Shown here in pieces: positions 13,363-56,286 of a stretch of 64,000 nucleotides of DNA (position 1 is the stretch's first letter; each line of letters starts with the position of its first letter). The notes below the pieces were generated by a model that was given only the letters and a program-made list of their open reading frames with translations, was not told where the DNA came from and did not search any database. Position numbers and translations under genes: made by a program. Location of the stretch: positions 64,001 through 128,000 of IMG/VR virus record IMGVR_UViG_3300046779_001735, one strand, 5' to 3'. The DNA comes from a virus.

Positions 13363-14252
13363 CCGACAAACATGCAAAAAGACTAAGACGAGCAGTAGAG
13401 TATGAACTCCGACAACAGGATCAACAAAGAGAAGCTCGTGCGTTGCTCAAAGCACAAAAACGTTTGCAAAAAATACATGCACACAAAGAAAAAACACCAA
13501 CCCCGGCATTAGAGGAGCCCACACCAGCACCATTGATTGGTCCTCTACATGTGGCCTGCTTGATTCATGGGCAAGCCTATGACTGGATGTATGTAGAGCG
13601 ACTTTACAATTCTGTGCGTAGAAACACCACATACGAGATTGTGTTTCATGTGTTTACAGAATACTCACGTGAAGTGCCATCACACATGATTAAACACAAT
13701 TTGGTTGAATGGGCCGATGTACATGGCCCACGAAAGAGTTGGTGGTACAAAATGCAGATCTATAATCCAGCTCATCACAGCGGCCCATTGTTGTATTTTG
13801 ACCTAGACACAGTTATATTGAAAAATATTGACTGGATCGCTAAACTGCCCATACGATATTTTTGGGCTAGTAAGGATTTTAGGCATCTTTGGCGTCCAAA
13901 TCACAGAGGCATTAATAGTAGTGTGATGTGGTGGGACACGCAGCGATTTGATTGGATGTATCAAGAATTTGAAAAACGCAACATCTATCATCTCATGAAA
14001 CAATATCAAGGTGATCAAGACTATGCCAGCGAGCTGCTTACAGACCGAGATCTTCGCTATTTTCCGCCAAACTACACAGCCAGTTGGCGCTGGCAGTGTC
14101 TAGATGGTGGCATGGATTTTAGGACAAAAAAATACCGAGCGCCCAACACAGGCACACAGGTTGATCCCCAGACATCTATATTGATATTTCACGGATCACC
14201 CAAGCCCCATGAGCTATTGCATGATAGAGTGGTCAAGAACTTCTGGCAGTGA
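13359..14252 (+). CDS. GT-A (GT8-like) glycosyltransferase with a charged N-terminal extension
   Basis: WWYKMQ, YFDLDTVI, INSSVMWW, GDQDY and FHGSPKPH. Confidence 0.75.
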   Translation: MTDKHAKRLRRAVEYELRQQDQQREARALLKAQKRLQKIHAHKEKTPTPALEEPTPAPLIGPLHVACLIHGQAYDWMYVERLYNSVRRNTTYEIVFHVFTEYSREVPSHMIKHNLVEWADVHGPRKSWWYKMQIYNPAHHSGPLLYFDLDTVILKNIDWIAKLPIRYFWASKDFRHLWRPNHRGINSSVMWWDTQRFDWMYQEFEKRNIYHLMKQYQGDQDYASELLTDRDLRYFPPNYTASWRWQCLDGGMDFRTKKYRAPNTGTQVDPQTSILIFHGSPKPHELLHDRVVKNFWQ

Positions 14253-14275
14253 TAAATATACTAGATATTTCAAAT

Positions 14276-14908
14276 ATGCACACACGCACTCTAACATTTA
14301 CCGGGTACAAACTTGGAACTAACAATGCTGAAATTACAGTGAGTTTTGATGGTGAAACTGTGTTTTCTGGCAGTGTAACCAATGACAGTTTGGGAACCAT
14401 TTTTACTCATACCATCCCAGTTACAAGTGTAGATTTGGCAGATTTTTCAAATCCTGGATCTGCAAACATCATCCCCATAATTACTTCTAGTCACACTGTT
14501 AGAGTAACGTGTACTCAAGGAAGCATCGCGCTTGAAACTGTTACAAGTCCTGCGCTTAACGAGACAGATAACTTTAGTGTGATTCCTGATCCACTTTGGT
14601 TTGTTGAAACTTATTCTATAATTCATGGGCAGGAGCATGATAGAACAGCACCTTTGCCGCCGGCGCCACGTGAGGCCACTGTTGATCCAAAGTATCATGT
14701 AACTCTTGATGGATCTGCTGTAAATAATCAGGTAACGTCCAACGACAATGGGCTATATACTCAAACTATTCCCACTAATTCTACATTAGAATTTAAGATC
14801 ATGATCAGGAATCTAATTGCATTTAAAGAACCAGGTTTTATACCGCCAATGGTCCTGTGGCAGCAATTAGAAAAACCGCTTAGAGGAGAAACATATGGCG
14901 ACCAGTAG
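14276..14908 (+). CDS. Hypothetical beta-rich late protein, possibly structural
   Basis: TAAATA at 14253-14258. Start revised to MHTRTLTF. Tandem paralog of 14895..15401 (RTL.F.GYKLG...A.ITV). Confidence 0.7.
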   Translation: MHTRTLTFTGYKLGTNNAEITVSFDGETVFSGSVTNDSLGTIFTHTIPVTSVDLADFSNPGSANIIPIITSSHTVRVTCTQGSIALETVTSPALNETDNFSVIPDPLWFVETYSIIHGQEHDRTAPLPPAPREATVDPKYHVTLDGSAVNNQVTSNDNGLYTQTIPTNSTLEFKIMIRNLIAFKEPGFIPPMVLWQQLEKPLRGETYGDQ

Positions 14909-15401
14909 AACACTTTCATTTCGTGGATACAAATTAGGTTTAGACACAGCCACAATCACTGTTACAATCAATGGACAGCAGATATACTCTGGTCCTGTTA
15001 ACAATGACACAGACGCTGAAATTTTTAGCTACATTGTACCTGTTACCGAAATAACCTCTGCGCAGATTCCGCAGGAAATGACCAATGACATCATTCCAGT
15101 GATCACTACAGAATACGCCGTGGTGGTAGAATGCACAGCTGGAACCATGAGAGTAAGTGATGTTAGAACTCCAAGACTGGATGCATTTGATGAACTGCCT
15201 TTGATTCTGGATGGTGATAATTATGGATTTCCCGGACAGCCGGCCACTAATTTTGACAGCAAATATGATGTACATTTAAACCTACAACCAATCACTGTGG
15301 AACGTTTGGAACAGGCCACTGGTGGGTGGCATCATACTGTGGCAGCAGGCAACAGACTCAGCTTCAAAATCAGGGTGATGAATCACGTGCAAATTTCGTA
15401 A
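14895..15401 (+). CDS. Hypothetical beta-rich protein, paralog of the upstream gene
   Basis: AGGAG RBS. Shares N-terminal and IIP.IT motifs with the upstream gene. Confidence 0.75.
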   Translation: MATSRTLSFRGYKLGLDTATITVTINGQQIYSGPVNNDTDAEIFSYIVPVTEITSAQIPQEMTNDIIPVITTEYAVVVECTAGTMRVSDVRTPRLDAFDELPLILDGDNYGFPGQPATNFDSKYDVHLNLQPITVERLEQATGGWHHTVAAGNRLSFKIRVMNHVQIS

Positions 15402-15419
15402 CATTGTTGATTTGTTAAC

Positions 15420-15447
15420 AAAAACCCTGCTTTTGTGCAGGGTTTTT
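15420..15447. terminator. Intrinsic terminator, potentially bidirectional
   Basis: AAAAACCCTGC-TTTTGT-GCAGGGTTTTT. Confidence 0.85.
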
Positions 15448-15448
15448 C

Positions 15449-15481
15449 ATGGTTGACCAATAATACCCAATTCGCTATAAT
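15449..15481 (+). promoter_or_regulatory. Sigma70-type early promoter
   Basis: TTGACC (15453-58), 17-bp spacer, TATAAT (15476-81). ATGGTTGACCAATAA is identical to the promoter at 50941. Confidence 0.85.
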
Positions 15482-15512
15482 ACTGACATACTAACAAAAC
15501 GGAGCAAAAGCA

Positions 15513-16532
15513 ATGTCTACTATTTTAGTTCGCAGCGGTGTGTACCGCAATCAGCCTGTAGTCAACCAAATCTTTACGCTGGTAAAGGGTTTCCAAAGTG
15601 GTCGCAAGGGCGGCTATGTTACAGTAAAATCAGACGGCGTGTTTGGCCCAGAATTTGATGTTGTAAGAATTCGGGTAAACGGAATTGACAGTATTGAATA
15701 CACCGCAGGAGAACCCGTGAGTAGTAATGTATTGGAAATGCCCAAAAGCACCAAGGTAGAGACCGACGAAGAAGTCATGGATCGCATTGAACAGCGTTTC
15801 AATATCCTAGACGACATGACCAAGGCCGCGATAAACGGTGACATACGTGCTATGATTGTACAAGGTCCTCCAGGTGTTGGTAAATCTTATGGTGTTGAGT
15901 TCCAATTAGAAAAGGCCGGCTTATTTGACAAAATGAGCGGCCGCAAGATCAAGTACGAAGTGATCAAAGGCGCTATGACGCCAATTGGCCTGTATGCAAC
16001 ATTGTACCGACACAGTGACCCCAAGAATGTCTTGGTGTTTGATGACTGCGACAGTATTCTGCTTGATGACCTGGCGCTGAACATTCTCAAGGCTGCATTG
16101 GATTCGGGCAAAAAACGTCGTATCCACTGGAATGCTGACTCTGCTCTGCTGCGTCGTGAAGGCATACCAGACAGTTTTGACTTCAAAGGTTCGGTAATTT
16201 TTATTACTAATCTTAAGTTCAACAACATCAAGTCTAAGAAACTGCAAGACCATTTAGAGGCATTACAGAGTCGCTGTCACTTCCTGGATCTCACACTAGA
16301 CACAACACGTGACAAGATCCTGCGTATTAGACAGATCTTTCGCAAGGGCGACTTGTTCCAGGACTACAATTTGACATCCGAACAAGGTGAACAAATTGTG
16401 CAGTTTATGCAAGACAATCATGCTAGACTGCGCGAAATAAGTCTGCGCATGGCGCTGAAGCTTGCGGATCTTACCAAGATATCCAGCAACTGGCAACAGT
16501 TGGCTGAGAGCACTTGCATGCGTCACAGTTGA
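15513..16532 (+). CDS. AAA+/P-loop ATPase, early gene
   Basis: Walker A GPPGVGKS, Walker B VLVFDD, sensor IFITN and Arg finger ALQSR. RBS GGAG. Confidence 0.85.
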   Translation: MSTILVRSGVYRNQPVVNQIFTLVKGFQSGRKGGYVTVKSDGVFGPEFDVVRIRVNGIDSIEYTAGEPVSSNVLEMPKSTKVETDEEVMDRIEQRFNILDDMTKAAINGDIRAMIVQGPPGVGKSYGVEFQLEKAGLFDKMSGRKIKYEVIKGAMTPIGLYATLYRHSDPKNVLVFDDCDSILLDDLALNILKAALDSGKKRRIHWNADSALLRREGIPDSFDFKGSVIFITNLKFNNIKSKKLQDHLEALQSRCHFLDLTLDTTRDKILRIRQIFRKGDLFQDYNLTSEQGEQIVQFMQDNHARLREISLRMALKLADLTKISSNWQQLAESTCMRHS

Positions 16533-16590
16533 TTGCTCCGTGGGACTCCAGTCCCACATGATTGGGCCCTTGCTCCGGTCCAATCTTTTT
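16533..16590 (+). ncRNA. Structured 3'UTR or candidate sRNA with anti-SD (CUCC) motifs
   Basis: Hairpins GTGGGAC-TCCA-GTCCCAC and GATTGGGCC-CTTGCTCC-GGTCCAATC. TTGCTCCG occurs twice. Confidence 0.5.
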
Positions 16591-16619
16591 AATAGGCACT
16601 GAATGGTGCCTATTTTTTT
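16591..16619 (+). terminator. Intrinsic terminator
   Basis: AATAGGCAC-TGAATG-GTGCCTATT followed by a T run. Confidence 0.85.
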
Positions 16620-16646
16620 GACTTGTGTAAATAAGCGTCATACAAT
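16618..16646 (+). promoter_or_regulatory. Sigma70-type promoter positioned to give a leaderless uvsW mRNA; TAAATA in its spacer
   Basis: TTGACT, 17-bp spacer, TACAAT. ATG lies 6 nt after the -10 box. Confidence 0.7.
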
Positions 16647-16652
16647 AGCACA

Positions 16653-18119
16653 ATGCCACAAGCCAAACTAATCATACGCGACGAAGTTAATGTCAAGATT
16701 GAAGGACTAGAACTTGATGCAAAACGCACTCTAGTCAACAAATTCAAATACGATGTGCCCTATGCTAGATATTTGCCAGCTGTAAGGCTAGGACGCTGGG
16801 ACGGCAAGATTGCTTATTTTCAACTAGGCGGCAGTACCTATGTGAATCTACTGCCTGACATCATTCCTGTTCTTGATGAAATGGGTTATGATTTTGAACT
16901 TGATGATCAACGAGAGTATCGTAGAGATTTTGAGTTCGAACGAGTCAATGAAAACACATTTGCGGAATTGACATGGCCTCGCGGACACCCGCAAGCCGGA
17001 CAACCAATACTGCTGCGCGACTATCAAGTTAGTATTATCAATGATTTTTTAACCAATCCGCAGTGTTTGCAAGAAGTAGCCACTGGTGCAGGTAAAACTA
17101 TCATGACCGCGGCTCTGAGTTATTCTGTGTCACCGTATGGGCGCAGCATTATTATTGTGCCCAACAAAAGCCTGGTTACACAAACTGAAAAAGACTATGT
17201 AAATCTTGGACTAGACGTTGGTGTGTACTTTGGAGACCGTAAAGAATTTGGACGTCAACACACTATCTGTACATGGCAAAGTCTCAATGTGCTGTTTAAA
17301 AATACCAAGAACTCTGTAGGCGATGTTACTATACAAGAATTTATTGAAGATGTTGTGTGCGTTATTGTGGACGAAGTACACATGGCCAAAGCAGACGCAC
17401 TGAAAACTCTGCTCACAGGTGTTATGAGTCGCATACCCATACGCTGGGGACTCACAGGCACCATTCCCAAGGAACAGTTTGAAAGTCAAGCACTAAAAGT
17501 CAGTATTGGTCCTATTGTGAGTCACTTGGCTGCTGCTGAACTACAAGAACGTGGTGTGCTGGCACAGTGTCATGTTAACATTGTGCAATTAGTTGATCAT
17601 GTTGAGTACAACAATTATCAAAGCGAATTAAAATATTTGCTAGAAGAATCAGGAAGATTGAATGCTATTGCCAACTTGGTTGCACAGATCAAACAAACTG
17701 GCAACACTCTTATTCTTGTTGATCGCATCGCAGCAGGGCAGGAACTGGTAAATAGATTGCCCAATGCAGTTTTTATTTCAGGGTCCACCAAAGCCGGGGA
17801 CAGACAGGAACATTATGACGAAGTGGCAGAGGCAACAGACAAAATCATCGTCGCTACCTACGGCGTTGCTGCTGTTGGTATCAATATTCCCCGCATTTTT
17901 AATCTTGTTTTACTTGAGCCTGGTAAATCTTTTGTACGAGTTATACAAAGCATTGGGCGGGGAATACGTCGAGCAGAGGACAAAGACTTTGTACAGATCT
18001 GGGACATCACGTCCACCTGCAAGTTCGCCAAACGACATCTAACCAAGCGCAAGGCCTACTATAAGGATGCTCGCTATCCTTTCACACACGAAAAACACGA
18101 ATGGATGACAATAAAATGA
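16653..18119 (+). CDS. uvsW: UvsW-like SF2 DNA helicase
   Basis: LRDYQ, TGAGKT, DEVH, LTGT, GINIP and QSIGRGIR. Confidence 0.9.
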   Translation: MPQAKLIIRDEVNVKIEGLELDAKRTLVNKFKYDVPYARYLPAVRLGRWDGKIAYFQLGGSTYVNLLPDIIPVLDEMGYDFELDDQREYRRDFEFERVNENTFAELTWPRGHPQAGQPILLRDYQVSIINDFLTNPQCLQEVATGAGKTIMTAALSYSVSPYGRSIIIVPNKSLVTQTEKDYVNLGLDVGVYFGDRKEFGRQHTICTWQSLNVLFKNTKNSVGDVTIQEFIEDVVCVIVDEVHMAKADALKTLLTGVMSRIPIRWGLTGTIPKEQFESQALKVSIGPIVSHLAAAELQERGVLAQCHVNIVQLVDHVEYNNYQSELKYLLEESGRLNAIANLVAQIKQTGNTLILVDRIAAGQELVNRLPNAVFISGSTKAGDRQEHYDEVAEATDKIIVATYGVAAVGINIPRIFNLVLLEPGKSFVRVIQSIGRGIRRAEDKDFVQIWDITSTCKFAKRHLTKRKAYYKDARYPFTHEKHEWMTIK

Positions 18120-19463: not shown

Positions 19464-20332
19464 TATATCAACCGTGGCCTAGACTGCGAATTAATTTTGA
19501 TAACGACGGTGCTGTGTTTGTGCTCTACCCCTGGGGCGCCGGCGGCAAGTTTGTTATCAACAGTCTAGCTGTAAGTACTCGAGCTGTGCCACAGGATGCT
19601 AGCTTGGCCGAGCAGCAACTCAATAAAGAATTATCAACAGCACAAAAAAAGCAAATAATTCTTGACAGACTTGCAGCGGAAAAAAATCGCTGGCAAGATC
19701 TGCATTTCAGTGTAGACGCACTCACCGGAGTTAACGAACGCTGTTACATAATTGAACCACCTAGTACTGCACAGTATTGGCCATGGAATCATTTTATGTC
19801 ACAGCTATCGCGAACGGCTATAAAATGGTTTGCTGACATACACGACGCAGGTCACCTATCAGCTTATCTAACTGTATGGCCTAATGCTCGCGTGATTAAC
19901 ATGGTAAACAGCAAAGCATTTTTAGAATGGCGTAGAGTCAACTACAATCGTGATTTGGTACAAAAATTTTGGCAAACAATTCGTGATCCCTCTTGGCCTA
20001 TAGAGGCGCCAGAGACCTGGAATGAATTTATTACATTACCTAAAGATATTCAAAAAGAATTACTGTTTGTCCGACACGGTGATATTTTCCAATTCATCCA
20101 ACATCCTGAAGCACAAGATCAATATGAGCACGCCAGACTTAAACATATAGCTCAGGTGTGTGAGGGGCGCGAGGTGTTTGAATTTGACACACAATGTTTA
20201 TTAGATACTAGTCAGTATCTAGAAACCATTGCTAGATGTTATAGTTGGACTGGCTTATATGATTTTGACAAAACTTTTTTAGAATGTTATCATAAACAAT
20301 GGCTAGAAAAAATACAGCAAGTACCAATATAA
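19457..20332 (+). CDS. Hypothetical protein with a P-loop/sulfotransferase-like N-terminus
   Basis: VLYPWGAGGKF. Carries the IRDPSWP...LP..IQ module. Confidence 0.6.
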   Translation: MVVYQPWPRLRINFDNDGAVFVLYPWGAGGKFVINSLAVSTRAVPQDASLAEQQLNKELSTAQKKQIILDRLAAEKNRWQDLHFSVDALTGVNERCYIIEPPSTAQYWPWNHFMSQLSRTAIKWFADIHDAGHLSAYLTVWPNARVINMVNSKAFLEWRRVNYNRDLVQKFWQTIRDPSWPIEAPETWNEFITLPKDIQKELLFVRHGDIFQFIQHPEAQDQYEHARLKHIAQVCEGREVFEFDTQCLLDTSQYLETIARCYSWTGLYDFDKTFLECYHKQWLEKIQQVPI

Positions 20333-35819: not shown

Positions 35820-36045
35820 ACCTAATTATATTTTTGAAAGTCCAGATGGTGGTAAAACCATATATCGCCGTACCAGTGGAAATCCACATAGAGAACTTCA
35901 TTATGAATCAAATGAGATAGTTACTCTGCGCGACGAAGTCAAAGAAACACAGTTGTGGCATGATATTCGTCAAGCAGCTTGTAATGATCCTGTACTGGGT
36001 GAAATGCTAGATAAAATCAAAATGTATTGGTTCTTACAAAAGTGA
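35812..36045 (+). CDS. Small hypothetical protein
   Basis: IFESPDGGKTIYRR. Coupled ORF. Confidence 0.75.
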   Translation: MSKPNYIFESPDGGKTIYRRTSGNPHRELHYESNEIVTLRDEVKETQLWHDIRQAACNDPVLGEMLDKIKMYWFLQK

Positions 36046-56059: not shown

Positions 56060-56286
56060 GGAGTTCAGTGAGAAAAGGTAAAACAGTAGTGGTACACGAT
56101 GGCAATGTAGAAAAAGCTCTGCGCAAACTCAAGAAAAAAGTTCAAGAGGACCGCTTGCTGATTAACCTACGTGAACGAGAACAGTATACCAAACCCACAA
56201 CACAGCGCAAACTCAAGGCCAATGCTGCCCGTAACCGTTGGCGCAAATATCTGGCAAGTCAGAAATTGCCTGCCAAAAGATATTGA
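56056..56286 (+). CDS. rpsU: Ribosomal protein bS21
   Basis: [16 protein letters not shown]...[19 protein letters not shown] at 56034-39. An alternative start is GTG 56068 after GAGGAG. Confidence 0.85.

Follow-up and report, generated by a model that had tools for sequence, protein, structure and literature searches.

A 3′ tail co-varying with the ribosome-binding site of its own ATPase gene in uncultured freshwater jumbo phages

Results

The ATPase gene and its transcription unit

The window, i.e. the whole stretch of 64 000 nucleotides that was analysed, corresponds to bases 64001–128000 of an IMG/VR virus record of 156.6 kb, estimated to be 45% complete. Related records are up to 315–345 kb long. 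DNA of this phage was seen in freshwater and lake metagenomes (public sequencing runs), and the carriers of the element described here are a family of uncultured freshwater jumbo phages. A near-identity DNA search of a phage collection gave no match. Among cultured phages, the closest relatives of the ATPase studied here are less than 40% identical, and a PDB sequence search with this protein returned no solved relative.

The features of the locus are listed in Table 1. Transcript ends were taken from consensus scans. The promoter lies 5′ of the Shine–Dalgarno (SD) sequence and the ATPase unit is bounded by terminators on both sides (sequence scan). The upstream terminator-like hairpin, at which Rfam gave only sub-threshold matches to terminator-type sRNAs, ends the preceding unit, so the ATPase unit looks monocistronic. 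Transcription is predicted to start near 15488. A TATAAT-like box was found at an equal distance in nearly all homologous loci. At the other end of the unit, the T run of the terminator continues into the −35 box of the promoter that follows.

Table 1. Position of the features of the ATPase unit in the window
Feature	Position	Strand	Evidence or remark
Terminator-like hairpin of the preceding unit (A5, CCCTGC/GCAGGG, T5)	15420–15447	+	Sequence reading
Sigma-70-type promoter (TTGACC-17-TATAAT)	15453–15481	+	11/12 consensus matches
Putative 5′UTR, ~25 nt, A-rich, unstructured	15488–15512	+	Sequence and fold
RBS ACGGAGCAA (SD core GGAG, C and flanks), 5′ pairing partner	15499–15507	+	Sequence
AAA-type ATPase gene, 339 aa	15513–16532 (ATG at 15513, TGA stop 16530–16532)	+	phrog_1250, homolog of T4-like nrdC.10; function unknown
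Anti-RBS copy 1 TTGCTCCGT, from the first base after the stop codon	16533–16541	+	Exact 9-nt reverse complement of the RBS
Hairpin 1, 7 bp, loop TCCA	16540–16557	+	Stem conserved, loop variable
Hairpin 2, 9 bp including one G-U, 8-nt loop CTTGCTCC, then T5	16560–16585	+	Fold
Anti-RBS copy 2 TTGCTCCG, in the loop of hairpin 2	16570–16577	+	Back-up partner
Intrinsic terminator, 10-bp stem, 4-nt loop, T7 run	16591–16620 (hairpin 16591–16614)	+	Scan and fold

GGAG is present upstream of 26% of the crude genes and the promoters are sigma-70-like; GGAG was therefore treated as a working SD. Because the phage encodes a homolog of bS21, the infected cell may use SD sequences in an unusual way. Freshwater huge phages whose predicted hosts are Bacteroidetes also encode a bS21 (PMC9723584). 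Host inference through KdsA was uninformative, this protein being ~50% identical to those of many phyla.

The tail of the ATPase mRNA

The tail of the ATPase unit is 85 nt long before the terminator. A 92-nt tail folds into exactly three hairpins, with an MFE of −39.5 kcal/mol (z = −5.5 compared with shuffles). In the isolated tail, copy 1 of the anti-RBS is single-stranded and abuts hairpin 1; the predicted helix formed by the SD and the anti-RBS is flush against this hairpin. A cmscan of positions 14000–18000 with Rfam, at E values up to 10, gave no match over the tail (16533–16620).

This layout had been described in a sequence-only reading of the same DNA. Its positions for the RBS, both anti-RBS copies, the hairpins and the terminator were all found to be correct. 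The RBS and the nucleotides directly after the stop codon are indeed perfect 9-nt reverse complements, and the second copy does lie inside the loop of a 9-bp hairpin. That reading also counted a third CTCC capping the 7-bp hairpin. It is present at the loop of hairpin 1, where even the nearest relatives fail to keep it, the loops reading TCCA, GCTA and TTCG. As judged from these loops, the CUCC of hairpin 1 is incidental.

The chance level was estimated within this genome. CGGAGCAA was observed three times in the window (1.16 expected), a number reached in 7 of 100 shuffles. In cross-pairings, an RBS/3′UTR complement of at least 9 nt has a P of ~0.009 per gene. Such a complement was found in one of 196 crude genes, which is about the chance rate. 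By duplex energy, the ATPase gene ranks second of the 196 (−17.1 kcal/mol vs a mean of −9.0, sd 3.2). Within a single genome, the match barely rises above chance and is not clearly beyond it; its significance therefore rests on the relatives of this phage.

Homologous loci

ATPase homologs with 58–95% identity were collected in three scans of viral metagenome contigs. The sample consisted of 129 distinct leader/tail combinations, hereafter called loci. A terminator T run was found within 110 nt in 101 of them. Upstream of this T run, 78 of the 101 loci contained a perfect complement of at least 7 nt to their own RBS region, and GGAG was included in the complement in 72 of the 78. When the reversed RBS was used as a control, the number fell to nine. 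The arrangement is that of the icaR type: a 3′UTR anti-SD motif complementary to the SD of its own gene.

The element is not found everywhere. A GGAGC RBS was kept without the tail element in L014, L074/83, L048/49 and L058. The element was also absent, with the GGAGC RBS kept, where the next gene abuts the stop codon. As several lineages keep the RBS without the tail, the element is dispensable. Among cultured phages, Acj9 and Ci1 have a next gene that abuts or overlaps the stop codon and hence no tail, and the homolog of Vibrio D506 has no complement. In PA5oct there is a complement of 8 nt, which leaves the SD core uncovered and can be taken only as a weak lead. Nothing useful on variation at the motifs came from four DNA contig sets.

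Covariation of the RBS and the tail

The core pairing GGAGC/GCUCC is nearly invariant. The flanking pairs differ among clades yet stay complementary, giving about 13 different matched helices across the loci (Table 2). All four Watson–Crick pair types were found at position +1, and three each at positions −1 and −2. In the large E-type clade, the helix contains a bulged N on the RBS side which is free to vary (C, A or G); in the L046 group, the bulge is shifted to the tail side. In L081, GGAGC was lost from the RBS and GCUCC from the tail, and 12 bp remain (−19.3 kcal/mol).

Table 2. States of the RBS and of the tail in homologous loci
Clade or locus	RBS	Tail
Window clade	ACGGAGCAA	UUGCUCCGU
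L012	GGAGCGAA	UUCGCUCC
L013	CAGGAGCA	UGCUCCUG
L015/16	AGGAGCAUUC	GAAUGCUCCU
Large clade (E-type), at least 30 loci	UAGGAGC-N-UAGAC	GUCUAGCUCCUA
L046 group	UAGGAGCAGACUA	UAGUCU-A-GCUCCUA
Second large clade	AGGAGCUA(A)	
Further RBS-side states	CAGGAGCUA, AGGAGCUAUA, UAGGAGCUAA, AGGAGCCAACC (11 nt), UGGAGCAACA	

An exact permutation test was performed with trimmed tails and one representative for each of eight clades (40320 permutations). The match length of the own pairs was reached by only 4–16 of the permutations and their duplex energy by only 2–15, P values that are approximate since the clades are related. The argument is carried by the number of independent matched states (~13). The extension of the match into the flanks, calculated on 55 unique combinations, was 154 with own pairs and 97 ± 7 with permuted ones. 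The pairing is specific to its register: of the right-flank cells, 74% pair in register in loci other than the E-type (8–59% when the register is slid), and for the E-type loci the figure is 70% in the one-base-bulge register (9–45% when slid). With whole tails, RNAduplex barely separated own from cross pairs (−16.3 vs −15.3 kcal/mol, 68 unique loci). This comparison is weak because the shared core and pairings between the U-tract and the A-rich leader dominate it, and trimmed tails and clade representatives were used instead.

Co-variation of the RBS and 3′UTR motifs among homologs of the ATPase, which the sequence-only reading had put forward as a check of its proposal, was thus found, both in the ~13 matched helices and in the clade permutations. 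On the basis of this natural covariation, the RBS/tail pairing is considered to be real.

Two architectures presenting the motif

The complementary block is presented in two ways. In the stop-adjacent type (30 distinct loci), it starts no more than 10 nt past the stop codon, flush with a hairpin that shows compensatory changes in four of its six pairs. In the loop type (43 distinct loci), its start is 21–45 nt past the stop codon and it takes up the 3′ half of a ~20-nt loop closed by a 9-bp stem; eight of the nine pairs of this stem are compensated, and GCUCCUAG is invariant in the loop. G-U pairs are far more numerous than A-C mismatches in the tail hairpins, which are therefore sense-strand RNA structures. 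A second helix in the loop type, in which the 5′ arm of the hairpin would pair with the first codons, was inconsistent across loci and is not claimed.

The window clade carries both types together. In its sister clade (L125, L144 and L150), the RBS and copy 1 are as in the window and the loop copy has decayed to UUCGCUCUGG, which suggests turnover between the two architectures. Copy 2 is conserved in the closest clade only. Conservation of the CUCC loops in related phages, on which the original proposal had staked itself, holds accordingly in part: the loop of hairpin 1 and, in the sister clade, copy 2 are not preserved, and the core GCUCC is nearly invariant.

One target per genome

In five related records (95–344 kb), TAGCTCCTAG was found once per record, in the ATPase tail, and related genomes of 190–340 kb have a single copy of the motif pair. 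In related genomes, GGAGCNTAGA is essentially the RBS of the ATPase gene only. Extra copies of the motif in related genomes, including those of the second clade, lie inside coding sequences and were discarded as chance hits. Early promoter-leader cassettes that end in AACAAGGAG(C/T) form a family in the genome of the window; an anti-RBS tail is lacking in all its other members, as it is in the other GGAGC-led early genes of this genome. Motif and target being essentially single-copy, and the flanks of the motif tracking their own RBS, the data point to self-regulation of one gene and not to a broad anti-SD regulator.

One of the two functions initially proposed for the tail, a general anti-SD sRNA silencing GGAG-led early or host mRNAs, is not supported by these findings. 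The likeness drawn with RNAIII and RsaE and their multiple C-rich loops fails, as the loop of hairpin 1 is not conserved, copy 2 is degenerate in the sister clade and there is one target of the extended motif per genome. The analogy with type I toxin mRNAs does not hold either, since the product is a 339-aa AAA ATPase and the locus has no conserved antisense ORF.

Predicted folding of the mRNA

In the window, the RBS is predicted to pair with the 16S tail at −5.8 kcal/mol vs −17.1 kcal/mol with its own 3′UTR. Across loci, the values are −6 to −8 kcal/mol with the conserved 16S tail and −13.5 to −21 kcal/mol with the own tail. The helix between the RBS and its own tail is 7–13 bp long and two to three times stronger than the SD/16S helix.

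The full-length putative mRNA (~1.1 kb) was then considered, in MFE folds that ignore ribosomes and folding kinetics. For the mRNA of the window, the probability that the SD pairs with the 3′UTR was 0.94. It was ~1.0 in 11 of 12 clade representatives. The exception was L015, whose SD pairs elsewhere in the full-length fold despite a 10-nt complement. When the tail was replaced by those of motif-less lineages, the probability fell to 0.01–0.08. Mutation of copy 1 lowered the value for the window to 0.47 and mutation of both copies to 0.10; loss of copy 2 left it at 0.94. The SD is predicted to pair mainly with copy 1, and in the fold the leader is single-stranded over its first 12 nt.

Discussion

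A predicted fold-back of the tail on its own RBS

The covariation among clades and the folds of full-length mRNAs strongly support the other function initially proposed for the tail, an autorepressive fold-back on its own RBS. We consider it probable that the SD and the tail pair within the same mRNA; this pairing is predicted to block initiation and so to cap the output of each transcript. The ATPase would be produced from a short monocistronic early mRNA consisting of a leader of 25 nt, the SD, the ORF and a tail of 85 nt, between a promoter and a terminator. The anti-RBS, made of GCUCC and clade-specific flanks, would be kept single-stranded, either directly after the stop codon, flush with a hairpin, or within a large hairpin loop, in its 3′ half. 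Once transcribed, the tail would pair with the SD of its own mRNA and binding of the 30S subunit would be blocked. The life of the mRNA would probably be shortened too, as the analogous cases of icaR and of synthetic anti-RBS 8-mers suggest (see below). As the tail is transcribed last, ribosomes would load only during transcription, which would take roughly 20 s. Loading being limited to this period, the output per transcript would be capped and synthesis of the ATPase would be tied to early transcription. Pairing in vivo, its repressive direction, the size of the effect and the timer logic are what we infer from the sequences and folds.

Other readings of the complementarity

It is possible, though on balance unlikely, that the tail acts as an autoregulatory 3′UTR-derived sRNA similar to OppZ and CarZ. 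A stable fragment of 60–90 nt, released by cleavage or accumulating, would pair in trans with the RBS of newly made copies of its parent mRNA and exert a negative feedback, and the putative fragment may also act weakly on other early mRNAs sharing the AACAAGGAGC leader; a few other early leaders of the genome do carry GGAGCA(A). The tail has the succession of seed, hairpin, Rho-independent terminator and U tail that is typical of many 3′-derived sRNAs, its seed is directed against the RBS of the parent unit and its terminator is intrinsic. The covariation is equally compatible with a self-targeting sRNA and with the fold-back. However, proximity favours intramolecular pairing. In 30 loci the seed starts at most 10 nt from the stop codon, and a processing site would hardly fit in between; there is no evident internal promoter, and the extended seed is without a second target in related genomes.

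Rather unlikely is a coupling of the pairing to termination of translation, in which the stop-adjacent helix would be melted by each terminating ribosome and the freed SD handed to the next initiation event. Ribosomes would load during transcription and the relay would then sustain itself, whereas an mRNA that has run empty would shut irreversibly. In the RNA phage MS2, a long-range RBS pairing is opened by translation. The start of the complementary block is bimodal, and at 10 nt or less after the stop codon (30 loci, with 43 at 21–45 nt) it is within reach of the terminating ribosome; in the stop-adjacent type the helix is, in addition, flush with the hairpin. Against this proposal, over half of the loci hold the motif in a loop 21–45 nt downstream, beyond the terminating ribosome, and in some lineages the stop codon has moved ~24 nt upstream and the motif has stayed in place. 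The proposal is purely inferential. If true, 9 nt would serve as a timer or memory of translation.

A stabilising role of the pairing is very unlikely. T4 RegB cuts GGAG in early SD sites, and an end-to-end helix comparable to that of hbs could shield the transcript or its GGAG from a host or phage endonuclease, for instance one of this kind. In Bacillus subtilis, pairing of the 5′- and 3′-UTRs of hbs modulates the access of ribonucleases (PMC5737220). Here the SD itself lies within the helix, which is much stronger than the SD/16S helix and must therefore compete with ribosomes, and the first 12 nt of the leader remain single-stranded.

That no RNA pairing takes place, the complement being due to chance, to a DNA-level inverted repeat of a mobile cassette or to the SD of an antisense gene, is highly improbable: the match is near chance in a single genome and, on the minus strand of the window, both copies precede in-frame starts of an antisense ORF of 76–95 aa, but chance is excluded by conservation and covariation (clade permutations), the hairpins co-vary as G-U-tolerant sense-strand structures, and a repeat that overlaps the SD is only 7–13 nt long. 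Of 89 distinct contexts, 66 have an antisense ORF shorter than 30 aa, and its start is not consistent; the antisense gene was rejected.

Comparison with known systems

The proposed fold-back of the tail on its own RBS is close to the regulation of icaR in Staphylococcus aureus, in which the SD is bound by a UCCCCUG motif of the 3′UTR, so that initiation is blocked and a site for RNase III arises (PMC3868564). In both cases, a pyrimidine-rich anti-SD motif of the 3′UTR faces the SD of its own gene; blocked initiation is predicted for the phage mRNA, and its helix, flush with a hairpin, could form an RNase III-type substrate. Unlike the ~390-nt 3′UTR of icaR, the phage tail is 60–90 nt long and carries the motif either next to the stop codon or within the loop of a hairpin. 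The phage gene is an early gene of a dsDNA phage without sequence homology to icaR, and its support comes from covariation, whereas that of icaR comes from experiment.

OppZ and CarZ of Vibrio cholerae are processed, Hfq-bound sRNAs which act in trans and cause Rho termination within their operon (PMC7398697). They share with the phage tail an mRNA 3′ end containing a seed for the RBS of its own unit followed by a terminator hairpin. In contrast to these operons, the ATPase unit looks monocistronic, and any processed fragment of it is putative.

In B. subtilis reporters, synthetic anti-RBS 8-mers placed in the coding sequence or in a 3′UTR ~830 nt downstream make the RBS less accessible and repress both the mRNA level and translation, and anti-RBS sequences are depleted from natural genes (PMC12697547). 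The phage element is likewise a complement of ~8 nt to the RBS located hundreds of nucleotides downstream, at a kind of position (the 3′UTR) that was among those used for the synthetic sites. Unlike the 8-mers, the phage anti-RBS is natural, conserved and co-evolving, which implies that it is selected for. It would be a case of an anti-RBS retained against the general selection reported against such sequences. The helix is short and could be tested with a handful of point mutations. The system would be a good one in which to ask how the phage benefits, whether by limiting the burst of an early protein or by shutting it off sharply and early, and it offers a compact and portable design for limiting the protein output per transcript.

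Long-range pairing also closes the RBS of hok, until 3′ processing, and that of MS2, until the upstream region is translated. A long-range closure of the RBS is predicted here as well. The present product, a 339-aa ATPase, is not a small toxin, a reading of the sequence shows no evident antisense RNA partner, the 3′ partner pairs with the SD itself, and opening by a terminating ribosome is here a hypothesis.

The tail is a new RNA element, without an Rfam match, whose mechanism would be of a known kind. No earlier example from a dsDNA phage was found in the literature searched. To our knowledge, very few natural bacterial 3′UTRs close their own RBS, namely that of icaR and, in part, that of hbs, and both are known from experiments in single species. 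Compared with these single-species precedents, the phage element adds deep phylogenetic covariation over more than 100 phage genomes and two interchangeable architectures.

Transcription signals around the ATPase gene

The UvsW-like helicase gene, which follows the ATPase gene, has a −10 box (TACAAT) 6 nt ahead of its ATG at window position 16653, and it lacks an SD. Because of this spacing and the missing SD, the transcript from the gene's own promoter should be leaderless. The 5–7-nt gap between −10 box and ATG is repeated in the related loci and also occurs at three further strong promoters of the window's genome (window 20265; positions 36012 and 153649 of the whole phage record, G000). 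The T run of the ATPase terminator leads without a gap into the next promoter's −35 box (TTTTTTTGACTT, window 16608–16623), a fusion kept in most related loci.

Outside the window, near-identical early cassettes form a family in the same record. They consist of TTGACC-17-TATAAT, about 14 nt, AACAAGGAG(C/T), about 7 nt and ATG, and drive small ORFs of 59–109 aa. The ATPase leader, which carries AAAACGGAGC, is a diverged member of this family.

Long ORFs lie antisense to the ATPase gene. Conservation of the one beginning past the reverse-complemented anti-RBS was checked in relatives and was not found.

Locations of the features described
Feature	Location	Strand	Details
Early cassettes	G000:C1, about 140045, 150189, 153832, 154224, 154670		outside window
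Antisense ORFs overlapping ATPase gene	window 15887–16583	–	95–114 aa
UvsW-like helicase promoter region	window 16618–16655		ATG at 16653
Short-spaced strong promoter region	window 20265–20301		
bS21 homolog	window 56083–56241	+	PF01165, 52.8 bits; open frame 81 aa
ATPase homolog L299, Pseudomonas phage PA5oct	MK797984.1, 248735–249933		38% identical

Comparison with known phages

In the cultured jumbo phage PA5oct, the spacer downstream of the ATPase homolog is 43 nt long and contains a hairpin, the 3′ arm of which is complemented by an 8-nt stretch immediately past the SD (AGTAGCAT). This match may be due to chance; PA5oct would nevertheless be a tractable test system.

The window also encodes a homolog of ribosomal protein bS21. 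In the ribosome, bS21 adjoins the 16S anti-SD, and SD use may therefore change late in infection. The homolog links the phage to the freshwater huge phages encoding bS21 that are described in PMC9723584.
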